NCBI GenBank assembly: GCA_034112225.1
Contig: JAWUVT010000077.1
Location: forward strand, 7,616 to 71,615
Source: Flavobacteriales bacterium
GTDB taxonomy: Bacteria; Bacteroidota; Bacteroidia; Flavobacteriales_E; Vicingaceae
Direction: 5' to 3'
Length of the DNA: 64,000 nucleotides
Below are positions 25,610-57,939 of the stretch, piece after piece. A program made the position numbers and the translations under genes. Under the pieces are notes generated by a model that was not told the origin of the DNA, ran no database searches, and was given only the letters and a program-made list of their open reading frames with translations. Each line of letters opens with the position of its first letter. Within the stretch, counting starts at the first letter, position 1.

Positions 25610-26086
25610 TTATTTTAAAAATTCACCATCAAATGCAAATGGTAAAATATCGTTGACCCTTTTAAACTGCCAAACCTTAGAATTTCCTGATTTCATACTC
25701 AATTCAATGGGCTGATTCTGAACAACTTCATATTCCATTAACACTTGTCTACATGCTCCACATGGGGATACTGGAAAGGCTGTAGTTTGGGCTGTTGTAA
25801 TTACAATTCTATCCACTTTTTCATCAGGAAATTGAGATTTTGCTGCAAAAATAGCAACTCGCTCTGCACATAAGCCCGAAGGATAAGCTCCATTCTCTTG
25901 ATTGGTTCCTTTTACAAGTTCTCCGTTAGACAATTGACAAACTGCACTTACCTTAAAATTAGAATAAGGAGCGTACGCATTTTTCAAATTAGAATCCGCG
26001 AGAGTAAACAAATTTTGTAATTCTTCATTTAAACCCTTTGTAGATTCAAATTCTAAGTACTCAATATTCAACAACCTTTTATTCAT
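25610..26086 (-). CDS. cdd: Cytidine deaminase (homotetrameric type)
   Basis: Zinc-binding motifs CAERVAIF and PCGACRQ at the spacing typical of CDA-family deaminases. 158 aa. Confidence 0.9.
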   Translation of the reverse strand: MNKRLLNIEYLEFESTKGLNEELQNLFTLADSNLKNAYAPYSNFKVSAVCQLSNGELVKGTNQENGAYPSGLCAERVAIFAAKSQFPDEKVDRIVITTAQTTAFPVSPCGACRQVLMEYEVVQNQPIELSMKSGNSKVWQFKRVNDILPFAFDGEFLK

Positions 26087-26164
26087 CTATGTAATAATAC
26101 TACTAATTTTATATTACTTTTAAACTTCTATTACTTTCAATAGTCAAACATACCAAAATTAAAG

Positions 26165-26926
26165 ATGAAAAAGAATATTTTAATACTGCTAGTGATAAGT
26201 ACTGTACTGCTTTCTTGTTCTAAAGACGAAGGTGAAGGTGGAAGGTCTTCTATTTCGGGCACTGTAACTGGCATAGAGATTTCTGTGGCTCAAGCTGAAT
26301 CGACTGTAATCATTACAATTCCGGGAGATGAGATTAAAAATCAAGACTTTATCTTATTAAACACTCCTGATACAAATGAGAATTATGCCCTTTGGTTTCG
26401 TAACACCTCTGAAATCGTATCTCCACCAAATTTTTTAGAGAGAAGTCTTATCCAAATTGATTATACCAAAACAACAAGCACCAATATTGATATTGCCACA
26501 AGTATTGAGTCTGCATTAAATTTAATCTCAGAAAATCCTTTTACAGTGAGCAGAATTAATGATATCATTACTGTAACCTGTAACACCAAGGGAACTGTTG
26601 CTGATGGAGATAATGGAATATCTAACTTAGGCGTTGATGTCACCACTCAAGGTGAAAATCAGATCACCTTACAAAGTGGGGCTTTTGCTGATGAAGATGT
26701 TTTTATCATTTACGGGGATAATGATGACATAGCTGATGACAACCTCAAAACAAACTATGATGGGACTTTTAAATTCACCAATTTAAGAAAAGGTTCGTAC
26801 ACCATTTTTGCATACAGTAAAGATGAATCTGCTATCGATAAACCGCTAACTCCCATTTTTGTTTCTACTGATATTAGCGGAAATGAAGAGGCTAATGTTG
26901 GTGCAATTTCCATAGAAAAAAAATGA
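26165..26926 (+). CDS. Lipoprotein, unknown function (CarboxypepD_reg-like strands split by an insert)
   Basis: Lipoprotein signal peptide (VLLSCSKDE). ISGTVTG near the N-terminus and YDGTFKFTNLRKGSYTIFAY near the C-terminus resemble a carboxypeptidase-regulatory-like beta-sandwich. ATGA overlap with the next gene. Confidence 0.6.
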   Translation: MKKNILILLVISTVLLSCSKDEGEGGRSSISGTVTGIEISVAQAESTVIITIPGDEIKNQDFILLNTPDTNENYALWFRNTSEIVSPPNFLERSLIQIDYTKTTSTNIDIATSIESALNLISENPFTVSRINDIITVTCNTKGTVADGDNGISNLGVDVTTQGENQITLQSGAFADEDVFIIYGDNDDIADDNLKTNYDGTFKFTNLRKGSYTIFAYSKDESAIDKPLTPIFVSTDISGNEEANVGAISIEKK

Positions 26927-27687
26927 ATCCAGCGTTAGTAAAGGCATTAAGTGAACTTACCCCCATTTCTTTAAAAGAAATGGATCGAGTAAAGCTGCAA
27001 AATAGAACAGACACCAAGTTTGTTTTTAATGCGGATGTATTGCCAGCGATACTTACAGAGATGGTTCCTTATTATTCTATTCTTGAAATTAAAGAAAACC
27101 GTACCAATAGTTATCAAACACTTTACTACGACACTAAAGATTTTCTAAGTTACATTAGACACCATAATGGTAAAGCAAATAGAATTAAAGTACGATTTAG
27201 AAAGTACATAGAGTCTGAATTGGTCTATTTAGAAGTGAAATACAAAAACAATAAATCACGAACGATAAAGGCCAGAACTAAGACAAAAAATATTGAAGAA
27301 GGGCTTTCTGATTTTTCTAAACAATTTGTTGAAGCGAATTCTTATTCTTTTTTTGATGAGCAAGAAATCATACCCACTTTATGGAATAGCTTTACCCGAT
27401 TAACTTTAGTGCATAAAACAGCAAACGAACGCTTAACAATCGATCTTAATTTAGGGTTTAAATCTTTTTCTGACAATAGAGAAGAACACATTCCTCATAT
27501 TATTATTGCTGAAGTAAAACAAGAAAAGGCCTCGTCTAATTCTGATTTTATTAAAGCCATTAGAAAATACCATATTAGACAAAGTAGTATGAGTAAATAC
27601 TGTGTTGGAACGGCTTTACTTCATAAAGGAATCAAACAAAACAATTTCAAAGAACGTATATTGAAAATTAATAAATTACAAAAATGA
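26923..27687 (+). CDS. VTC domain protein (polyphosphate polymerase / triphosphate-tunnel-metalloenzyme fold)
   Basis: Soluble 254-aa protein with the basic strand pattern of the VTC domain (Pfam PF09359): RIKVRFRKYIESELVYLEVKYKNNKSRTIKAR and, later, IIAEVKQEK. No signal peptide or TM segment. ATGA overlaps with both neighbours. Confidence 0.7.
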   Translation: MNPALVKALSELTPISLKEMDRVKLQNRTDTKFVFNADVLPAILTEMVPYYSILEIKENRTNSYQTLYYDTKDFLSYIRHHNGKANRIKVRFRKYIESELVYLEVKYKNNKSRTIKARTKTKNIEEGLSDFSKQFVEANSYSFFDEQEIIPTLWNSFTRLTLVHKTANERLTIDLNLGFKSFSDNREEHIPHIIIAEVKQEKASSNSDFIKAIRKYHIRQSSMSKYCVGTALLHKGIKQNNFKERILKINKLQK

Positions 27688-28364
27688 TTGACGAATTATT
27701 ACTAAGAATACCAATTTTAGGATCAAAAATAATAGACTTCGATGATTTTTTCGAAATGATTCTCCGCTTTTTAATCAACTTTACGGTTGTGTTTATGTTG
27801 GTAAGAGTTATTTACTATCCCATACATAAACGTAAAGATTATTTAGTTACTTTTTTCTTGATTAACATCCTTATCTTTTTTGTTTGTATTGTGATGAAAG
27901 ATGTTAAAATGAATATGGCTTTTGCTTTTGGTTTATTTGCCATTTTTGGAATATTAAAATATCGTACAGAACAGCTCCCCATAAAAGAAATGACCTATTT
28001 ATTTATGGTTATTGCTATAGCTGTATTGAATTCTTTAGCAGGAAAAAAAATCAGTTTTGCAGAGCTGATGCTAGTCAATGGAACAATCATTCTTGCTACT
28101 TACCTCCTTGAAAGAGTCTTTTTATTAAAACATGAATCGAGAAAATCGATTGTCTATGAAAAAATAGAAAATGTTAAACCGGAAAACCATGCTCAACTTC
28201 TTGCTGATTTAGAAGATCGAACGGGTTTAAGTATTAACCGAATACAGATTGGAAAAATCGATTTTTTAAGAGATACCGTTAAGGTTGTTGTTTATTATCA
28301 TGAGGAGGATCCCTCTAATAGTTTTAATGATTCAAACGGTTTTGTGAGTAATAAAAATGAGTAA
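27684..28364 (+). CDS. DUF4956-family membrane protein (usual partner of bacterial VTC-domain proteins)
   Basis: Four to five TM helices with the conserved-looking GLFAIFGILKYRTEQLPIKEMTYLF stretch, followed by a soluble C-terminal tail. Adjacent to and overlapping the VTC gene, as in the recurrent VTC/DUF4956 gene pair. Confidence 0.65.
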   Translation: MIDELLLRIPILGSKIIDFDDFFEMILRFLINFTVVFMLVRVIYYPIHKRKDYLVTFFLINILIFFVCIVMKDVKMNMAFAFGLFAIFGILKYRTEQLPIKEMTYLFMVIAIAVLNSLAGKKISFAELMLVNGTIILATYLLERVFLLKHESRKSIVYEKIENVKPENHAQLLADLEDRTGLSINRIQIGKIDFLRDTVKVVVYYHEEDPSNSFNDSNGFVSNKNE

Positions 28365-29001
28365 ACGTCTATTTATACTTTTGGTATTCATGCCCTTACT
28401 TTGTCAATCACAATTGGCGAGTGATGCCAAATTATGGTCAGGAATAAGTGTGTCTAAAAAAGTAAATGATTTTAAATTTTCTATTGCTAAAGAAGTTAGA
28501 TTTGACGAGAACATGAGTCATCTTGATAAATCATTTGGGGAAATAGGCAGCCAATATAAAATTAATAAAACGCTTTATGTTGAACTCAACTACAGATTTA
28601 ATCGAGATAACGACTATTCTACAGAAAGTTATCAGCTAATCCATAGAGTTGATTTTGGTCTTTCCTATAAAAGGAAGGTCGATAAATTTCGTTTGAAATG
28701 GAGGAGTAAAATTCAATTAAAAAGTGCTTCAACCGACGAAAATAATCCATTGGTTATTCGTAACAAAATGTCAATAAAATATAAAATCAACAAAAAAATA
28801 GCCCCTTATATCGCTTATGAGTTTTATTATCAACTCAATACTGAAAATTGCATAAACAGAAACCGAATCTCTTTAGGGAGCTCTTTTAAAGTAACAGATC
28901 AAACCGATCTAAAAATGTTTTATCTGTTTGAAAATAAATTTAACGTAAAAAACATACAACATAATCATGTTTATGGCATTAGCTATAGTATAGATTTATA
29001 A
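28357..29001 (+). CDS. Secreted small beta-barrel-like protein (DUF2490-like), putative outer-membrane component
   Basis: Signal peptide (LLVFMPLLCQSQ). Alternating hydrophobic/polar beta-strand pattern throughout (LYVELNYRF, HRVDFGLSYKRK, FRLKWRSKIQLK, KMFYLFENKF, VYGISYSIDL). 8-nt overlap with the DUF4956 gene. Family assignment is tentative. Confidence 0.5.
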   Translation: MSKRLFILLVFMPLLCQSQLASDAKLWSGISVSKKVNDFKFSIAKEVRFDENMSHLDKSFGEIGSQYKINKTLYVELNYRFNRDNDYSTESYQLIHRVDFGLSYKRKVDKFRLKWRSKIQLKSASTDENNPLVIRNKMSIKYKINKKIAPYIAYEFYYQLNTENCINRNRISLGSSFKVTDQTDLKMFYLFENKFNVKNIQHNHVYGISYSIDL

Positions 29002-29010
29002 ATCTCTTCC

Positions 29011-29018
29011 TATATTTG
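29011..29018 (+). promoter_or_regulatory. Candidate -7 promoter box (TATATTTG)
   Basis: Exact TAnnTTTG match 20 nt upstream of the 29038 ATG, in the 36-nt gap after the VTC operon. Confidence 0.3.
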
Positions 29019-29037: not shown

Positions 29038-29865
29038 ATGTTTAAATTTTTATTCAGTAAAACCTTTGTCATCAATCTATCCATATCTCTTGTTATTGCA
29101 GGGTGTATAATTGGGGGTATTTTTAAATTTATTGAGGACTATACTTTACATAATCAAATGATTAGCGTACCTACTTTAGAGGGGTTAACCTTGGAAGAAA
29201 CAAGCTCTTTATTAAATGAGAGAAAGCTACGCTTTACTATTCTAGATTCTATATACGTTACTGACGCTGCTAAAGGTGTTGTCTTAGAACAAAATCCTGC
29301 GGCAGCTGATTTAGTTAAAGAAAACCGAACGATTTACATTACTATTTCTAAAGTGGTTCCTCCAAACATTTCGATGCCAGATGTTGTTGACATGTCTTTG
29401 AGATTGGCTATCGCTAAATTAGAGAGTTATGGTTTAAAAGTGAAAACACAATTCATTCCCTCAGAGTGTATCAATTGTGTTTTAATTCAAGAGATTGATG
29501 GAAAAGAAGTTTTTCTTAATGATAAAATCAAAACAGGGTCTACAGTTCTTTTAACTATTGGTAAAGGTACAAGTGATGAGAAAGTATTGGTTCCATTTTT
29601 AAAAGGATTAACGAAAAATGAAGCGGAGAAAAAACTAACCGGAACTTCTTTAAACATTGGTTTTAGTGATTATGAAAATTGCCAATGCAAAACAAAAGAA
29701 GACTCCCTAAATGCGAAAGTTTATCGGCATAACCCTATACGAGATCAAAAAGTTGTAATTAATATGGGGAGTTCCGTAGACTTGTATTTTACTTGTGATA
29801 CTTCAATGCTTATTTTGATGCCTTCAGATACTAATTTATCAGCTAATACGTTCATCCAAGAATGA
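29038..29865 (+). CDS. Membrane-anchored stand-alone PASTA-domain protein (three PASTA-like units)
   Basis: N-terminal TM anchor (INLSISLVIAGCIIGGIF), then three roughly 65-aa units starting VPTLEGLTLEE..., MPDVVDMSLRLA..., VPFLKGLTKNEA.... No kinase or transpeptidase domain. Confidence 0.75.
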   Translation: MFKFLFSKTFVINLSISLVIAGCIIGGIFKFIEDYTLHNQMISVPTLEGLTLEETSSLLNERKLRFTILDSIYVTDAAKGVVLEQNPAAADLVKENRTIYITISKVVPPNISMPDVVDMSLRLAIAKLESYGLKVKTQFIPSECINCVLIQEIDGKEVFLNDKIKTGSTVLLTIGKGTSDEKVLVPFLKGLTKNEAEKKLTGTSLNIGFSDYENCQCKTKEDSLNAKVYRHNPIRDQKVVINMGSSVDLYFTCDTSMLILMPSDTNLSANTFIQE

Positions 29866-31751
29866 GAAAACACCTTTACATATTATTAATTGGAATATTA
29901 TTGACGATTACGTTGCTAGGACAAAAAGATACTATTTATGATTTAGGAGGAAACAATGTCATTAGTTCTTTTTACAACACGAACAAAGATCATCCCAATT
30001 CGATTTATAAGCGGCTCAAAATTCAAAATAAAAAAGCGGCATTAAGCCTTCCCTTTTTAGATGATTTTTCTCAAGCCAATATCTATCCTAATCTAAATTT
30101 ATGGGAAGATATAAACGTTTATGTAAATTCTAATTTCCCTGACAATCCAATTAGTTATGGTGTTGCTACTTTTGATGGATTAGACTCTACGGGTACACCT
30201 TACAACTTTGCAGTACCAACATCTTATGGTCCTGCTGACACTTTAACCTCTAAACAAATAGATTTAACAACCATCAATGATAGTGTATTTTTAAGCTTCT
30301 ACTACCAACCACAAGGAAATGGAAATAAACCCGAAGCTAGAGACAGTTTAAGATTAGAGTTCTTTAGACAATCTGATAGTACATGGGTTAGAATGTGGGG
30401 AATGGAAGGCTTGCCAAATCAAGTTTTTAAACAAGTAATGCTTCCAGTTGATACTTCTTATCATACGAATGAATTTCAATTTCGATTTATGAATTGGGCT
30501 ACATTATCGGGCAATGTAGATCATTGGCATCTGGATTATGTTTACCTTAATGACAACAGGACACATGCTGATACGGCATTAAATGATGTATCGTTTATTA
30601 CAAATCATCATAATATGTTGAATGAGTTGACCAGTCTTCCTTGGAGTCATTACTTAACCGATACCATTGGTTTAATGAAAACGGATATGGATGTGACTTA
30701 TCGAAACAACCATAACAGTACTTACGCAGTTTTTTATAACTACGAAGTAATTGAAGATAATGGCAGTGGGTCATCCATTGAAACTTACCCCACAACAACC
30801 TCTTCAAAAAATGTGACTGCCCATTCTAACTTTACCGAACCTCAAGCTGTGTACAATACTCCAAATAATGATTTTTTCTTTCCATCAAACAGTGCTATTT
30901 CTAATGTTTTTCAAATAAAAAACTATTTTAATGTTTCTCCATCTGATTTTAACACCAAAAACGACACGGTATGCTCTTATCAAGTTTTCAGTGATTATTA
31001 TGCTTATGATGATGGAAGTGCAGAATTAGGGTATGGAGTTCAAGGAGTTAATTCAAAACTAGCTCAAGAGTTTGACATAAAGAAAGCAGATACGTTAACT
31101 GCAATACAAATTTATTTTAATCCAATAATGAATGATTTGAGTGCACAAACATTCCGATTAAAAGTATGGAGTAGCTTAAGTCCTGAAGTTGTAATCTACA
31201 CCCAACCAGCTACACAATATACTAGTCCCGTTTATTCTAATACTAACGAATATATAAATTACACCTTAGAAACACCTCTTTATTTAACTGCAGGAACTTA
31301 TTATTTTGGTTGGGAAAAAATAACTGCAGCATTTTTAAATGTTGGTTGGGATGTTAACACCAACAATCGAAATAAAGTTCATTTCAATTCTGTTGGAACT
31401 TGGGAAGCTCCAACCTCTAGTATTCCTGATGGATCTTTAATGTTAAGACCTGTTTTTGGGCATCTTGCTCCAGTAATTGTAAGCACTCCCGAAATGGAAA
31501 GAAATCTAGCAGATTTTAAAGTTTATCCAAATCCAACTCAGGAGTTTATTTATTTTAAGGTTAGTGATGAGAATCAAAACTCCTATCGTATTGAATTACT
31601 TGATATTTATGGTAAACTGATCTTACAAACGGAATCTAACCTGAGTAACCGATTAAATGTTAAAGCTATTTCTAATGGCTTATACATCGTTCGTTTTACG
31701 AACAACGACAATGAAAAATCTATTCTGAAAAAAATTATTATTTCTAAATAA
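29862..31751 (+). CDS. Secreted protein of unknown function with type-A T9SS C-terminal sorting domain
   Basis: Signal peptide. The C-terminus FKVYPNPTQEFIYFKV...GLYIVRFTN...KKIIISK fits the T9SS CTD pattern. ATGA overlap with the PASTA gene. Confidence 0.75.
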   Translation: MRKHLYILLIGILLTITLLGQKDTIYDLGGNNVISSFYNTNKDHPNSIYKRLKIQNKKAALSLPFLDDFSQANIYPNLNLWEDINVYVNSNFPDNPISYGVATFDGLDSTGTPYNFAVPTSYGPADTLTSKQIDLTTINDSVFLSFYYQPQGNGNKPEARDSLRLEFFRQSDSTWVRMWGMEGLPNQVFKQVMLPVDTSYHTNEFQFRFMNWATLSGNVDHWHLDYVYLNDNRTHADTALNDVSFITNHHNMLNELTSLPWSHYLTDTIGLMKTDMDVTYRNNHNSTYAVFYNYEVIEDNGSGSSIETYPTTTSSKNVTAHSNFTEPQAVYNTPNNDFFFPSNSAISNVFQIKNYFNVSPSDFNTKNDTVCSYQVFSDYYAYDDGSAELGYGVQGVNSKLAQEFDIKKADTLTAIQIYFNPIMNDLSAQTFRLKVWSSLSPEVVIYTQPATQYTSPVYSNTNEYINYTLETPLYLTAGTYYFGWEKITAAFLNVGWDVNTNNRNKVHFNSVGTWEAPTSSIPDGSLMLRPVFGHLAPVIVSTPEMERNLADFKVYPNPTQEFIYFKVSDENQNSYRIELLDIYGKLILQTESNLSNRLNVKAISNGLYIVRFTNNDNEKSILKKIIISK

Positions 31752-31752
31752 A

Positions 31753-32790
31753 GTGGAGCAAGAAACGGAAGAATTGGCAAACAATGATGGTCTATATGAA
31801 CATTATAGTTTTGTCGCAGATAAAGGGCAAGAATTATTAAGAATTGATAAATTTTTAATGGATCGGATACCCAATGCAACAAGAACTAAACTACAAAGTG
31901 CAGCTATTGATGGTCACATCTTTGTTAATAAAAAAACAGTAAAACCGAATTATAGGGTAAAACCGTTAGACAATATAACTGTAGAATTGGCCTACCCTCC
32001 TCAAGAAATTGAATTGATACCTGAAGATATTCCTTTGAATATTGTGTATGAGGATGATACTGTTATTGTGATCAATAAGCAATCCGAAATGGTGGTTCAT
32101 CCTGGTTATGGAAATTATACCGGAACTCTTGTTAATGGTTTGATTTTCCATTTTGAAAATTTACCTCAAACTGATGTGGCAAATAGACCTGGCTTAGTGC
32201 ATCGATTAGATAAAAACACTACCGGAATTATGGTAATCGCTAAAAATGACCATGCGTTAACACATCTAGGAAAACAATTTCATGACAGAACTACAGAAAG
32301 AAGGTATCAGGCTTTAGTTTGGGGAGATTTAAAAGAAGATGAAGGCACTGTAACAGGTAATGTTGGAAGAGCATTAAAGAATAGGAAAGTAATGGAAGTT
32401 TTTCCGGAAGAAGATTACGGAAAACATGCGGTAACTCATTATAAGGTATTGAAACGTTATGGCTATGTTACGTTGATTGAATGTAAGTTAGAGACAGGTA
32501 GAACTCACCAAATACGTGTTCACATGAAGCACATCGGGCATACCTTGTTCAATGACTTAGAATATGGTGGAGATAGAATTCTTAAAGGAACTTCTTTTAG
32601 TAAATATAAGCAGTTTGTAAACAACTGTTTTAAAATTTTACCGAGGCAAGCTCTACATGCTAAATCTTTAGGTTTTGAACATCCTAAGACCGGTAAATGG
32701 ATGCAGTTTGAATCTGATTTACCAACAGACATGATAGATACTCTTGCCAAATGGGATGTCTATGTTGCCAATAGAGGTGATGTAAAATAG
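31753..32790 (+). CDS. rluD: RluA-family 23S rRNA pseudouridine synthase (RluD-like)
   Basis: N-terminal S4-like RNA-binding region (RIDKFLMDRIPNATRTKLQ). Catalytic motif HRLDKNTTGIMVIAK, and later GRTHQIRVH. GTG start 1 nt after the upstream stop. Confidence 0.9.
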   Translation: MEQETEELANNDGLYEHYSFVADKGQELLRIDKFLMDRIPNATRTKLQSAAIDGHIFVNKKTVKPNYRVKPLDNITVELAYPPQEIELIPEDIPLNIVYEDDTVIVINKQSEMVVHPGYGNYTGTLVNGLIFHFENLPQTDVANRPGLVHRLDKNTTGIMVIAKNDHALTHLGKQFHDRTTERRYQALVWGDLKEDEGTVTGNVGRALKNRKVMEVFPEEDYGKHAVTHYKVLKRYGYVTLIECKLETGRTHQIRVHMKHIGHTLFNDLEYGGDRILKGTSFSKYKQFVNNCFKILPRQALHAKSLGFEHPKTGKWMQFESDLPTDMIDTLAKWDVYVANRGDVK

Positions 32791-32803
32791 ATTTTAAATG
32801 TGA

Positions 32804-32840
32804 TAAAAAAAGGGTCTTATTCAAATAAGATCCTTTTTTT
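32804..32840. terminator. Bidirectional rho-independent terminator between convergent rluD and the 32858..34927 gene
   Basis: 9-bp stem GGGTCTTAT / ATAAGATCC (one G-T wobble) at 32812-32833 with loop TCAA. It is flanked by A7 upstream and T7 downstream, so either strand reads a hairpin followed by a U-tract. Confidence 0.75.
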
Positions 32841-32857
32841 ATATTCATTTTTTAGGG

Positions 32858-56013: not shown

Positions 56014-57939
56014 ATGCTCAAATATTTCCCTCTTTTTATATTCTTTCTTTTTAGTTTTAAACAACATTTTAGTCAGTGCACTGCATCAGAAAAGGAATTG
56101 ATCATAAATATTACACCCGATAGTTACCCGGCTGAAATTACTTGGGACGTAAAGAACTTATCTACTGCAACGGTTATCGCTTCGGGTGATTCTCTGGGTA
56201 GCGCTGTATGTTTAGACACTACCACCTGTTTTAAATTTACCATTTACGATAGTTTTGGAGATGGTATTTGCTGTTCTTTCGGAAATGGGAGCTATGACTT
56301 AATTTATGATGGAATTTCCATTCAAACAGGAGGGAGTTATGGCAGTTTAGAAAGTAAAACAATCAATTGCCTCCCTATTGATTCTACAAATCTGCCGTTA
56401 GTAAAAATCAACACCAATGGGCAAACAATACTAGATGATCTTAGGATTATTGCTGACATGGAGATCATATATAATGGGCCAAATGTTATCAATCATTATT
56501 CGGATACTGCCAATAATTATAGGAACAAAATTAGCATCGAAAAAAGAGGTTCGTCTTCACAAACCTTCCCTAAAAAATCATACAGCTTTGAAACGCAGGA
56601 TGTGTTAGGAAATAACAATAACGTAAGTTTAATTGACCTGCCTGTAGAAAATGATTGGGTTCTATATGCTCCTTATTCTGATAAGAGTTTAATGAGAAAT
56701 GTACTCACCTATAGGCTTGGCAGAGAAATGATGGACTATGCTCCAAGAACACAGTTTTGTGAAGTGCTCTTAAATGATGAATACATTGGAGTCTATGTGC
56801 TTACCGAAAAAATTAAAAGAGATAACGATAGGATTGATATTTCAAAATTAGATGCTGATGACTTAGCGGGCGATAGCTTAACTGGCGGCTATATTGTTAA
56901 AATTGATAAAACAACTGGAGGAAGCAGCATTGGGTGGGCATCCCCCTACACCCCGCCAAATGATGCTACAGAGCAAATCGACTTTCTTTTTCATTACCCC
57001 AAAGAAAATGACATTCTACCAGCCCAAGCAAACTATATAGAGAATTACATGACTACTTTTGAAGAGGCCTTAAATGGCCCTAGCTTCGAAGATCCTCTTC
57101 TTGGATATGCTCCTTTTATTTCCGATATATCGTTTATTGATTTTTTCATTTTTAATGAATTAAGTAAAAATGTTGATGGATACAGAATTAGTTCTTACCT
57201 CTATAAAGACAAAGACAGTAAAGGAGGTAAATTAACAATGGGACCGTTATGGGATTTTAATATTGCTTATGGCAATTCAAATTATTGCGAGGGAGAATTG
57301 ACCAGCGGTTGGCAAAAAGACTTTAACGACATTTGTCAACACGGTAATATGGTTCCTTTTTGGTGGAATAGATTATTACAAGACACCACTTTTGCCAACC
57401 GTCTAAAGTGCCGTTGGGAAGATAAACGATCAGGACCCTTACATTTAGATTCTATTTTTCACAAAATAGATTCATTTGCAGTTTATCTAGACCAAGCTCA
57501 AGCTAGAAACTTTACAACTTGGAATATTTTAGGCACTTACATTTGGCCTAATAACTACATTGGTACTTCCTATATAGATGAAGTTAACTTTCTTAAAAGT
57601 TGGATTTCTTTAAGAATAGATTGGTTAGACATTAATATGCCTGGAACCTGTCCACCGCAACCTCCTTTGGGAGTTGAAGGCTTCAATTCTTTTCCAGCGA
57701 TTACTCTTTACCCAAACCCCGCAAAGAATATTTTATATATCAATTTACCCAATTCCTCTTTCTCCCCATTAAAAATTGAACTACAAGACACTAAAGGTAC
57801 TATTGTCTATAATGAGGTGATCTCTAATGCTACAAACAAAATAGCATTACCAGTAAATGGGTTAAAAAATGGGTTTTACACCTTAAAGCTTAGTTCCAAT
57901 CAACTTAATCGTGTTTTAAAATTTATTAAATCAGAATAA
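56014..57939 (+). CDS. CotH-family (atypical protein kinase fold) protein with N-terminal Cys-rich module and type-A T9SS CTD
   Basis: The likely start is the ATG at 56014 (MLKYFPLFIFF; the ORF-track start at 55993 is a TTG). CotH-like stretches: KKSYSFE, NDWVLYAPYSDKSLMRNVLTYRLGREM, NDEYIGVYVLTEKIKRD, DGYRISSYLYKD, GPLWDFNIAYGN. N-terminal module: YPAEITWDV...CFKFTIYDSFGDGICCSFGNGSYDLIYDG. C-terminus ITLYPNPAKNILYINL...GFYTLKL...KFIKSE. Confidence 0.8.
   Translation: MLKYFPLFIFFLFSFKQHFSQCTASEKELIINITPDSYPAEITWDVKNLSTATVIASGDSLGSAVCLDTTTCFKFTIYDSFGDGICCSFGNGSYDLIYDGISIQTGGSYGSLESKTINCLPIDSTNLPLVKINTNGQTILDDLRIIADMEIIYNGPNVINHYSDTANNYRNKISIEKRGSSSQTFPKKSYSFETQDVLGNNNNVSLIDLPVENDWVLYAPYSDKSLMRNVLTYRLGREMMDYAPRTQFCEVLLNDEYIGVYVLTEKIKRDNDRIDISKLDADDLAGDSLTGGYIVKIDKTTGGSSIGWASPYTPPNDATEQIDFLFHYPKENDILPAQANYIENYMTTFEEALNGPSFEDPLLGYAPFISDISFIDFFIFNELSKNVDGYRISSYLYKDKDSKGGKLTMGPLWDFNIAYGNSNYCEGELTSGWQKDFNDICQHGNMVPFWWNRLLQDTTFANRLKCRWEDKRSGPLHLDSIFHKIDSFAVYLDQAQARNFTTWNILGTYIWPNNYIGTSYIDEVNFLKSWISLRIDWLDINMPGTCPPQPPLGVEGFNSFPAITLYPNPAKNILYINLPNSSFSPLKIELQDTKGTIVYNEVISNATNKIALPVNGLKNGFYTLKLSSNQLNRVLKFIKSE

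Follow-up and report, generated by a model that had tools for sequence, protein, structure and literature searches.

A four-gene VTC-DUF4956 cassette of a Flavobacteriales bacterium as a candidate envelope-spanning polyphosphate module

Introduction

In the textbook view, bacterial polyphosphate is a matter of PPK1/PPK2 chemistry and is confined to the cytoplasm: both enzymes form it from ATP, the product is deposited in cytoplasmic granules, and neither is known to have an export partner. A preprint from August 2026 (PMC13484657) reports that, in the Bacillus cereus group, abundant extracellular polyphosphate persists without PPK1 and PPK2; it calls the route of synthesis and export unknown and notes that a VTC4 homologue is missing from B. 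cereus. PPK-independent extracellular polyphosphate is an open question to which a gene cassette within a 64,000-nucleotide stretch of Flavobacteriales DNA (hereafter the window) is relevant. A sequence-only reading had described the cassette as a candidate envelope-spanning polyphosphate module. Could its four proteins synthesize polyphosphate at the inner membrane and deliver it outside the cytoplasm?

Gene organization of the cassette

Between positions 26165 and 29001, the window encodes four proteins on the same strand (Table 1); the coordinates of the sequence-only reading were exact, and all three junctions overlap. ORF1 and ORF2 as well as ORF2 and ORF3 are joined by an ATGA (26923-26926 and 27684-27687), and the ATG of ORF4 (28357-28359) sits 8 nt inside ORF3, whose TAA occupies 28362-28364. 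These overlaps support an operon with translational coupling. The fixed stoichiometry that had also been proposed was over-read, as it is no consequence of gene overlap.

The promoter of the cassette would lie in the spacer shared with the divergent cdd gene, where the blocks TTAATATTACTTTTAAA and AGTCAAACATAAnAAAAT are kept in the equivalent spacer of close relatives. An exact TAnnTTTG was absent from the plus strand of this spacer; the minus strand carries two copies (26145-26161). No pel genes, no adjoining CotH gene and no DUF4832 gene belong to the cassette. The host is a member of a marine polymer-degrading lineage.

Table 1 Features of the cassette, with positions given in window coordinates
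Feature	Position	Strand	Description
Intergenic region, 78 nt	26087..26164	.	between divergent cdd gene and ORF1; presumed cassette promoter region
ORF1 lipoprotein	26165..26926	+	253 aa
ORF2 VTC-domain protein	26923..27687	+	254 aa, cytoplasmic; candidate polyphosphate polymerase
ORF3 DUF4956 inner-membrane protein	27684..28364	+	226 aa
ORF4 DUF2490 outer-membrane beta-barrel	28357..29001	+	214 aa

ORF2 resembles the catalytic domain of Vtc4

ORF2 affiliates with the VTC family (PF09359; E=2.5e-26, 93.1 bits, the cut-off being 23), which counts 5559 representatives at 50% identity, and its residues 27-234 span the full profile (1-235/235). It lacks a signal peptide, an SPX domain and a transmembrane (TM) segment, has a pI of 9.7, and includes a basic, conserved C-terminal helix (238-253). 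Its AF2 model (pLDDT 88, pTM 0.86) had yeast Vtc4 as the closest Foldseek match (E 5.8e-13, TM 0.66). The Vtc4 structures 3g3r and 3g3q (E about 1e-12) ranked first, followed by Vtc2/3, ygiF and CYTH proteins; AtTTM3 was also among the matches. The earlier placement of ORF2 in the VTC/TTM fold is borne out by these results. A closed antiparallel beta-barrel tunnel is predicted for the model from the fold match rather than from the coordinates.

Residues were mapped by profile alignment to the Vtc4 chain, with residue roles taken from bioRxiv 10.1101/2023.01.27.525886. According to this mapping, all triphosphate ligands of Vtc4 (K200, R264, R266, K281, R361, S457 and K458) have predicted equivalents in ORF2 (K32, R91, R93, K106, R159, S224 and K225, respectively), and the Mn ligand E426 corresponds to E197 by motif only (E426-x-K428 versus E197-x-K199). 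The equivalents of K200, R264, R266, K281, K294, R361, R373, S457, K458 and, by motif, E426 were invariant in 290 bacterial homologues, so that the basic tunnel residues expected by the sequence-only reading are both present and conserved. Among them, Lys458 tells active Vtc4 from inactive Vtc2/3 (bioRxiv 10.1101/2023.01.27.525886). The invariant residues of ORF2 alternate i/i+2 on seven strands, the pattern expected of a tunnel lining. The exception is Tyr359, whose position is taken by Phe157 in ORF2 and by Phe (166), Tyr (120) or Cys (4) in the 290 homologues. A Y359F exchange reduces polyphosphate in yeast (bioRxiv 10.1101/2023.01.27.525886), and this residue is evidence against the function proposed below, yet Phe and Tyr swap freely at this position of the family alignment. 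Overall, fold and catalytic residues point to ORF2 as a candidate ATP-dependent polyphosphate polymerase.

ORF3 is a membrane protein of the DUF4956 family

ORF3 belongs to DUF4956 (PF16316; E=5.1e-54, profile 1-169/169), and no other Pfam family was found in it. Five hydrophobic segments at about residues 22-146 were recognized from hydropathy and K/R distribution, in agreement with the multi-TM DUF4956 protein of the sequence-only reading. In alignments, the motif GLFAxF...(K/R)YRT(E)...(M)TYLF at the TM3-loop-TM4 junction is invariant across phyla. The C-terminal domain (about 150-206) is of the alpha/beta type, ACT-like and cytoplasmic.

The AF2 model of ORF3 was poor (pLDDT 59), and a Foldseek search with this low-confidence model yielded just weak ACT-like matches (E>0.1) and no Vtc chain; a sequence search of the PDB returned zero matches. 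Likeness of DUF4956 to the channel helices of Vtc1/3/4 or to any solved transporter was not detected, and no structural match speaks for a channel role. DUF4956 has been described as MgtC-like with an ACT domain (PMC12345266), which suggests a regulator. Sequence comparison did not support membership in the MgtC family (PF02308): hhalign of the DUF4956 alignment against E. coli YhiD gave a probability of 0.2%, and Pfam MgtC was matched by one of 14 members (E=0.043).

The outer membrane barrel and the lipoprotein

ORF4 affiliates with DUF2490 (PF10677; E=1.1e-19, 71 bits, the cut-off being 29.8), with a weak additional match to OMP_b-brl. The signal peptide and barrel-like character noticed earlier were recovered: ORF4 carries a C-terminal aromatic/hydrophobic beta-signal ending in SYSIDL, and the aligned DUF2490 proteins, predicted to be barrels, share the terminal motif x-Y-S-x-[DE]-[FLI]. 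The protein is basic (pI 9.6), and D23, R48, N52, Q120, R135, E155 and R170 are invariant in the DUF2490 alignment. The best PDB match of the DUF2490 profile was NanC, a 12-strand acidic-sugar channel of equal length, at a borderline E=0.002. DUF2490 is listed as a putative porin family (TC 1.B.81; PMC4827864), and its conserved charged residues may form a buried structural network instead of lining a pore (preprint 10.64898/2026.07.29.741452).

In Gammaproteobacteria-type operons the slot of DUF2490 is held by the phosphate-selective porin O/P, Porin_O_P (16 operons; PF07396, E down to 1.5e-59). ORF4 itself matched neither Porin_O_P (at E<=0.1) nor KdgM in Pfam, and its link to Porin_O_P is positional, not one of family membership. 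That two unrelated barrel families share one slot behind DUF4956, with overlapping junctions, would be difficult to understand if the barrels had no functional connection to it.

ORF1 has a signal peptide followed by the lipobox LLSC (MKKNILILLVISTVLLSC), whose Cys18 is invariant among 33 aligned homologues; it is accordingly a predicted lipoprotein, as previously proposed. The tether motif C-x-K-x-x-G-E-G-G is invariant as well. Residues 36-174 are a lineage-specific insert of approximately 140 aa; homologues usually lack it and have a length of about 135 aa. At the C-terminus, a conserved beta-sandwich (about 80 aa) gave solely sub-threshold Pfam matches of the prealbumin/Y_Y_Y type. ORF1 homologues were present in 48 of the 80 genome loci, nearly always alongside DUF2490.

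Conservation of the gene neighbourhood

Adjacency of VTC and DUF4956 (VTC>DUF4956) was observed in 78 of 80 genome loci, the remaining two being broken by contig ends, and the two genes adjoined in 60 of 63 metagenome loci seeded with DUF4956, an arrangement far past chance. The pair occurs in either gene order in Bacteroidota, Alpha- and Gammaproteobacteria, Deinococcota and Actinomycetota, so the gene-order conservation anticipated for relatives reaches well past Flavobacteriia. With start codons being approximate, 59 of 79 VTC-DUF4956 junctions and 29 of 39 DUF4956-DUF2490 junctions overlap, the latter most commonly by 8 nt, as here. Among 59 metagenome loci, the gene directly 3' of DUF4956 encoded DUF2490 in 25, Porin_O_P in 12 and a lipoprotein pyrophosphatase in 5. 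No barrel adjoined the pair in 34/80 genome and 17/59 metagenome loci, and the Gram-positive versions in the literature have no barrel gene.

Further recurrent partners are a lipoprotein inorganic pyrophosphatase, MORN-repeat, beta-helix and phytase-like proteins, and CotH-family kinases with a T9SS tail, lipobox or signal peptide, the kinases being found in such operons of Bacteroidota, Proteobacteria, Deinococcus and Firmicutes. Some cassettes encode secreted carbohydrate-binding (Cthe_2159), beta-helix and CBM-like proteins. In Proteobacteria and Deinococcus, neighbours related to phosphate include a PiT-like transporter, phnDCE, an acid phosphatase (HAD) and a phytase-like esterase. All accessory partners bear export signals and are extracytoplasmic; a cytoplasmic, ATP-using enzyme can serve them solely via something that crosses the inner membrane.

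Proposed function and alternative explanations

We propose that the operon encodes a bacterial split VTC polymerase/translocase with outer membrane parts, in which synthesis is coupled to export via DUF4956 and an anion-selective barrel, and we give this reading a probability of roughly one half. In the cytoplasm, ORF2 would use gamma-phosphates from ATP to extend a polyphosphate chain that lies within the basic tunnel of its beta-barrel. It would be docked on an ORF3 oligomer, with contacts probably made by the invariant TM3-loop-TM4 motif of ORF3 and by the C-terminal domain of ORF3 on the cytoplasmic side. ORF3 would pass the growing polymer to the periplasm, and the basic barrel ORF4 together with lipoprotein ORF1 may let this polyanion traverse the outer membrane or reside there; we infer this last role because Porin_O_P replaces DUF2490 in other lineages. 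The sequence-only reading of an envelope-spanning polyphosphate module is supported in fold, tunnel residues and synteny, and it is strengthened by Porin_O_P in the DUF2490 position and by the extracytoplasmic location of all accessory partners. Polyphosphate synthesis and translocation themselves are deduced from these features.

The strongest competitor, which we nevertheless regard as unlikely, involves no translocation. Here DUF4956 would be an MgtC-like anchor or ACT regulator of a cytoplasmic VTC enzyme, either a granule-making polymerase at the membrane or a triphosphatase, and the lipoprotein and barrel would be a separate outer membrane module sharing the operon. The 4-5 TM segments plus ACT-like C-terminal domain are indeed an MgtC-type architecture, no channel-like match was found for DUF4956, the barrel is missing from the loci counted above, and lipoprotein-DUF2490 pairs also occur as stand-alone units. 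However, the MgtC sequence tests were negative, and neither the exclusively extracytoplasmic partners nor the filling of one slot by two barrel families fits such a separation.

Inward scavenging of environmental polyphosphate or pyrophosphate ranks below it and is improbable. The barrel and lipoprotein would capture the anion, DUF4956 would thread it through the inner membrane, and VTC would consume it in the cytoplasm by hydrolysis or transfer to ADP. Porin O/P, PiT, phn, phosphatases and the periplasmic pyrophosphatase typically take part in the acquisition of phosphate and suit import as much as export. TTM enzymes, such as ygiF and AtTTM3 among the Foldseek matches, are mostly hydrolases, and the marine polymer-degrading lineage of the host is in keeping with uptake. 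Against uptake, the equivalent of Lys458, the marker of polymerase Vtc4 versus its inactive paralogues, is invariant, the nearest structures are Vtc4/2/3 rather than triphosphatases, neither an energised importer nor a periplasmic binding protein is present, and the recurrent links to secreted CotH kinases and to exopolysaccharide (pel) are left unaccounted for.

Least probable is that VTC acts on another triphosphate-bearing substrate, for example by passing phosphate or pyrophosphate on to an acceptor (lipid, glycan or protein) that DUF4956 holds, with a phosphorylated envelope component instead of free polyphosphate as product: the catalytic versatility of the TTM superfamily, the secreted carbohydrate-binding proteins of some cassettes and the Pel link (DUF4956 and CotH mutants alter Pel level and aggregation) favour it, but the complete Vtc4 triphosphate and polymer ligand set is conserved, the Porin O/P, pyrophosphatase and Pi-transporter partners indicate inorganic phosphate species, and neither a glycosyltransferase nor a lipid-carrier gene was found in the window cassette (ORFs and Pfam).

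For the split polymerase/translocase, strict conservation of the catalytic site, an inner membrane partner and phosphate-selective outer membrane channels make the cassette a testable candidate for a second polyphosphate route, delivered outside the cytoplasm. If true, the VTC principle of combined synthesis and translocation has a prokaryotic counterpart with other membrane parts, which would bear on marine phosphorus cycling, on biofilm matrices (pel-linked versions) and on virulence loci (C. perfringens NELoc-2). It would also suggest a phosphoryl supply for extracytoplasmic CotH kinases. As a more doubtful extension, the core and an anion-selective barrel may perform PPK-independent polyphosphate secretion, the product serving as energy-rich phosphoryl donor or scaffold outside the cytoplasm, where there is no ATP, feeding above all secreted or lipid-anchored CotH kinases and explaining at least part of the PPK-independent extracellular polyphosphate.

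Comparison with known systems

PPK1/PPK2 and ORF2 share the proposed product, whereas their folds are unrelated. Secretion systems for Pga, Pel, alginate and cellulose combine a cytoplasm-facing polymerase, an inner membrane conduit, a lipoprotein and an outer membrane barrel in one operon. The cassette may work like these synthase-dependent systems, but this is an analogy only, as none is homologous; its polymer would be polyphosphate, and it has no glycosyltransferase, TPR scaffold or c-di-GMP receptor. ORF4 is linked to the phosphate/polyphosphate-selective porins OprP/OprO by the operon slot (Porin_O_P) and to the KdgM/NanC acidic-substrate channels by the best solved match of its family profile (NanC, borderline), and it is basic with conserved arginines; it belongs to a different Pfam family, and its pore is putative. 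MgtC/SapB proteins resemble DUF4956 in the N-terminal half of 4-5 TM and the small ACT-like domain (PMC12345266), a likeness that has no sequence support.

The eukaryotic VTC complex (Vtc4/Vtc3 or Vtc2/Vtc1; PDB 3G3Q, 7YTJ, 8I6V) has the catalytic fold and the triphosphate, Mn and polymer ligands, including Lys458, in common with ORF2, at a sequence identity of about 12-17% and with Phe for Tyr359. Both systems pair the catalytic domain with a dedicated membrane component, which implies synthesis beside the membrane. In contrast to the eukaryotic architecture, ORF2 has no SPX domain and no fused 3-TM segment, enzyme and partner are separate polypeptides, DUF4956 (5 TM plus ACT-like) is unlike the 3-TM Vtc1-type (DUF202) subunits, and the outer membrane and lipoprotein partners have no eukaryotic counterpart.

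The Gram-positive pel-linked loci encoding cotH, polyphosphate polymerase, DUF4956 and DUF4832 (S. intermedius SIR_1594-1591; Whitfield et al. 2019-20; mBio 2025, PMC12345266) share the VTC-DUF4956 core, often with a secreted CotH, and are the sole members with any genetics. The closest experimental evidence comes from Streptococcus intermedius mutants, which show mild phenotypes in aggregation; deletion of the VTC gene had no clear phenotype, polyphosphate not being part of the readout (PMC12345266). Given these deletion mutants, the earlier statement that no bacterial member has been characterized is slightly outdated; it stands for biochemistry, as our literature search found no biochemical data on any bacterial VTC member. 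The triad was reported as absent outside pel loci (PMC12345266); here, pel-free instances were seen in Bacteroidota, Gammaproteobacteria-type contigs and Deinococcus. Relative to the pel-linked loci, the window cassette adds a lipoprotein and an outer membrane barrel to the common core.

Organization of the cassette and its surroundings

The window, from a Flavobacteriales bacterium near Vicingaceae, contains a compact cassette encoding a lipoprotein (ORF1), a VTC-domain protein (ORF2), a DUF4956 membrane protein (ORF3) and a DUF2490 barrel (ORF4). The overlaps claimed for its junctions by the sequence-only reading (ATGA at 26923-26926 and 27684-27687, 8 nt at 28357-28364) were confirmed in the raw sequence. 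An NCBIfam search of the four proteins gave no information beyond Pfam.

Features of the cassette and of other parts of the window
Feature	Position	Strand	Description
cdd	25610-26086	-	cytidine deaminase, upstream of the cassette, divergent
ORF1	26165-26926	+	lipoprotein
ORF2	26923-27687	+	VTC, full-length (Pfam E=2.5e-26)
ORF3	27684-28364	+	DUF4956 (Pfam E=5.1e-54)
ORF4	28357-29001	+	DUF2490 (Pfam E=1.1e-19)
TATATTTG box	29011-29018		between cassette and PASTA-domain gene
Second packed unit	29038-32790	+	PASTA-domain gene, T9SS-tailed gene, rluD
T9SS-tailed gene	29862-31751	+	629 aa; 4-nt ATGA overlap with PASTA-domain gene (29862-29865)
rluD start	31753	+	GTG, separated from the preceding stop codon by one base
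Hairpin	32803-32842		18 pairs, likely bidirectional terminator
CotH-family kinase	56016-57939	+	Pfam CotH 9.1e-54, Por_Secre_tail 2.4e-11

The cdd gene adjoins the cassette in 30 of 80 related genome loci (L001-L054, L039, L069, L077 and L078 being named); it lies upstream in divergent orientation in some and downstream in the same direction in others. A functional link was rejected because a fixed chromosomal slot (PDH E2, PDH E1alpha, cdd, then the cassette), in which the cassette is occasionally inverted, accounts for the adjacency.

Directly 3' of the cassette lies a second tightly packed unit. The 36 nt separating the cassette from its PASTA-domain gene hold no terminator-like hairpin, and the first strong hairpin follows rluD. 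It is long and perfect-looking, with A/T-rich arms and the core GGGTCTTATT...AAGATCC, and sits between rluD and a convergent 689-aa gene on the minus strand. The T9SS-tailed protein has no recognisable catalytic domain and a weak Reelin-subrepeat match; it was rejected as a divergent CotH or T9_553 partner, the T9SS sorting domain being its sole match. Neither it nor the PASTA-domain gene is part of the cassette. Scans for promoters and terminators yielded nothing informative (85 TAnnTTTG matches against 97 expected; sigma-70 sites at chance level).

At a distance of 27 kb from the cassette, the window also encodes a CotH-family kinase that stands alone and bears both a signal peptide and a C-terminal sorting domain of the T9SS type. 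Its neighbours are unrelated (epimerase-like, SDR, GAF histidine kinase), and it is only distant kin of the CotH proteins found inside VTC cassettes elsewhere.

ORF2, a candidate polyphosphate polymerase

ORF2 was modelled confidently with AF2 (pLDDT 88, pTM 0.86). In Foldseek, its nearest PDB structures were the catalytic domains of yeast Vtc4, the active polyphosphate polymerase of the VTC complex (3g3r, 5.8e-13, TM 0.66), followed, in this order, by Vtc chains of cryo-EM complexes, Vtc2, and the triphosphatase ygiF with CYTH proteins. A direct PDB sequence search returned zero matches and a shallow profile found Vtc2 alone (E=0.068). A broader profile, built from 52 diverse representatives of a VTC family of 5559 clusters (E<=1e-3), reached Vtc2 (2e-5) and Vtc4 (3e-4) with residue-level alignments; with a chain offset of 185, the numbering agrees with that published for Vtc4.

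In this profile alignment, R28, K32, R91, R93, K106, K116, R159, R170, S224 and K225 of ORF2 correspond to Vtc4 R196, K200, R264, R266, K281, K294, R361, R373, S457 and K458, respectively, and E197-x-K199 matches E426-x-K428 by motif only. The triphosphate ligands of Vtc4 are K200, R264, R266, K281, R361, K458, S457 and Y359, mutation of any of which lowers polyphosphate, and E426 is a Mn ligand; K458 is the one residue swapped, for Ile or Leu, in the inactive Vtc2 and Vtc3 (cryo-EM preprint, 10.1101/2023.01.27.525886). Among 290 bacterial sequences the equivalent positions were invariant or nearly so, except that of Tyr359, which is Phe in 166 (the window protein included) and Tyr in 120. Such invariance means strict purifying selection on the active site. 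Sequence and structure show ORF2 to be a Vtc4-like enzyme whose active site is intact and which would make polyphosphate. In JGI/IMG, ORF2 and a cluster mate are labelled 'Fe-S cluster assembly scaffold protein SufB', a misannotation, since Pfam and structure both indicate the VTC/TTM fold; the NCBI name for ORF2-like proteins is 'polyphosphate polymerase domain-containing protein'.

Membrane and envelope partners

ORF3 has five hydrophobic segments; a cytoplasmic location is predicted for its K/R-rich loops (42-58 and 87-104) and for the C-terminal domain. Conservation in DUF4956 is highest in the block GLFAxF...(K/R)YRT...TYLF, which runs from TM3 through a cytoplasmic loop into TM4. Among the 80 genome loci, retrieved with a VTC profile, VTC is directly followed by DUF4956 in 78, the remaining two stopping at contig edges, and junction overlaps are the rule, with start codons in related loci being approximate. 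The converse search of metagenomes, seeded with DUF4956, found an adjoining VTC gene in 60 of 63 loci. DUF4956 is hence an obligatory, translationally coupled membrane partner of the VTC protein.

ORF1 gave only sub-threshold beta-sandwich matches in Pfam, within its last 80 residues. Across 33 homologues Cys18 and the following C-x-K-x-x-G-E-G-G are invariant, the fuller invariant form after the lipidated Cys being C-x-K-x-x-G-E-G-G-x-S/A-x-I-x-G (residues 18-32); this motif could tether or plug the DUF2490 barrel. Most homologues have about 135 aa, and an insert of about 140 aa (residues 36-174), placed between the first and second beta-sandwich strands as an extra domain with no Pfam match, is limited to ORF1 and its closest relatives. 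The idea that the insert derives by fusion from p158, the secreted 158-aa MORN-repeat gene of longer cassettes, was rejected, as the two show no similarity.

ORF4 carries a signal peptide and a C-terminal beta-signal, has a pI of 9.6 and conserves D23, R48, N52, Q120, R135, E155 and R170. The best solved match of its profile is NanC, a 12-strand acidic-sugar channel of equal length (E=0.002). A published listing (PMC4827864) has DUF2490 as a putative porin family whose function is unknown, and a buried charge network was described in part of the family (2026 preprint, 10.64898/2026.07.29.741452).

Variation of the cassette and accessory genes

The lipoprotein occurs in 48, DUF2490 in 46 and both in 43 of the 80 genome loci, and lipoprotein-DUF2490 pairs are also found alone. 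Longer cassettes of other Bacteroidota read lipoprotein, 158-aa secreted MORN-repeat protein, VTC, DUF4956 and DUF2490, preceded on the 5' side by either a CotH kinase with a T9SS tail or an uncharacterised T9SS protein. Where loci come from MAG contigs, their taxonomic labels are uncertain. In B. thetaiotaomicron, BT3498 has been named in the literature as DUF4956 and BT3499 as DUF2490. Annotated plasmid or chromid records hold CotH-VTC-DUF4956 in Deinococcus, VTC-DUF4956 adjoining an acid phosphatase and phnDCE in another Deinococcus, DUF4956-VTC-phytase-like esterase in Aminobacter and Shinella, and the latter order with a PiT-like phosphate transporter between VTC and esterase in Nitratireductor.

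Directly after DUF4956, 25 of 59 metagenome loci encode DUF2490, 12 a phosphate-selective porin O/P (PF07396, E down to 1.5e-59), five an inorganic pyrophosphatase of family I bearing a lipoprotein signal and 17 none of these. The porin-type operon, lipoprotein-CotH > VTC > DUF4956 > Porin_O_P, was present in 16 loci. Every recurrent accessory product bears an export feature (T9SS tail, lipobox or signal peptide). The same operon has thus recruited, repeatedly and independently, anion channels of the outer membrane as well as phosphate-related proteins located outside the cytoplasm.

Several loci deserve separate mention. The pyrophosphatase genes at L137:6515-7120, L143:6515-7120 and L150:6571-7134 (lipoprotein signals ..FIGC.., ..VISC..) overlap the end of DUF4956 in operons of the order beta-helix-lipoprotein > VTC > DUF4956 > PPase; an extracytoplasmic location is in itself unusual for a pyrophosphatase. 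In five loci (L163:7341-9005, L148:7369-9276, L129, L166 and L090), one of them a human-gut contig, DUF2490 or the porin is followed by a Cthe_2159 carbohydrate-binding beta-helix lipoprotein (Pfam 5e-37), which adds to the extracytoplasmic accessories of the module. In the isolate Pseudoalteromonas sp. CuT4-3 (L081:6273-7558, NZ_CP142031.1) DUF4956 and the porin O/P gene have remained intact, while all that is left of the VTC gene is a C-terminal piece of 104 aa, which a lamin-tail-domain ORF overlaps; the locus has probably decayed from a CotH-VTC-DUF4956-porin operon of the kind kept complete in the related metagenome contigs L089-L104. A BaeS/BaeR-like two-component pair of the envelope-stress type, scoring below equivalog cut-offs, recurs no more than a few kb away from proteobacterial porin-type operons (L091, L093, L099, L103 and L159) and is a candidate regulator. 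Its identity as PhoBR was rejected on the NCBIfam ranking, and membership of the Pho regulon is therefore not claimed.

Proposed function and comparison with known systems

We propose, with a probability of roughly one half, that the module performs synthesis-coupled polyphosphate export: polyphosphate made by ORF2 would pass the inner membrane through DUF4956 and be handled at the outer membrane by DUF2490 and its lipoprotein. That a phosphate-type anion is what crosses the outer membrane finds its strongest single argument in the substitution of porin O/P for DUF2490.

The role of DUF4956 as conduit is the weakest link of the export model, since its AF2 model was poor (pLDDT 59, from a 23-sequence alignment, all at least 64% identical to the query), Foldseek with this low-confidence model gave only insignificant ACT-like matches to the C-terminal domain, a PDB sequence search found zero relatives, and the MgtC homology proposed in the literature, where the Streptococcus intermedius orthologue is described as MgtC-like plus ACT (mBio 2025, PMC12345266), was not supported by sequence comparison. 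DUF4956 is accordingly a candidate conduit; that it would be a non-translocating anchor or regulator we consider unlikely. Slightly less probable still is the same module working as an uptake system: the phosphate-acquisition flavour of many neighbouring genes suits import, whereas the invariant polymerase-type lysine, the first rank of Vtc4 among structures and the links to secreted CotH kinases and exopolysaccharide loci suit export. That the VTC domain serves another phosphoryl acceptor is improbable.

A trio of cotH, polyphosphate polymerase and DUF4956 genes has been noted beside Gram-positive pel loci and in NELoc-2 of C. perfringens. In S. intermedius, deletion of the DUF4956 or the CotH gene alters Pel level and aggregation and deletion of the VTC gene had no clear phenotype, polyphosphate not being measured there (PMC12345266). 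That study reported the trio at pel loci only; in contrast, we found it without pel in several phyla. Our literature search retrieved no report linking DUF2490, porin O/P, the lipoprotein or pyrophosphatase to VTC-DUF4956, nor of a biochemical test on any bacterial VTC protein. A recent preprint describes PPK1/PPK2-independent polyphosphate outside the cells of the B. cereus group, made by a pathway that it calls unknown (PMC13484657); the VTC-DUF4956 module is a ready, directly testable candidate for PPK-independent extracellular polyphosphate chemistry in its many bacterial carriers. Compared with the eukaryotic VTC complex, the catalytic kind is the same, whereas the membrane hardware is different and non-homologous.
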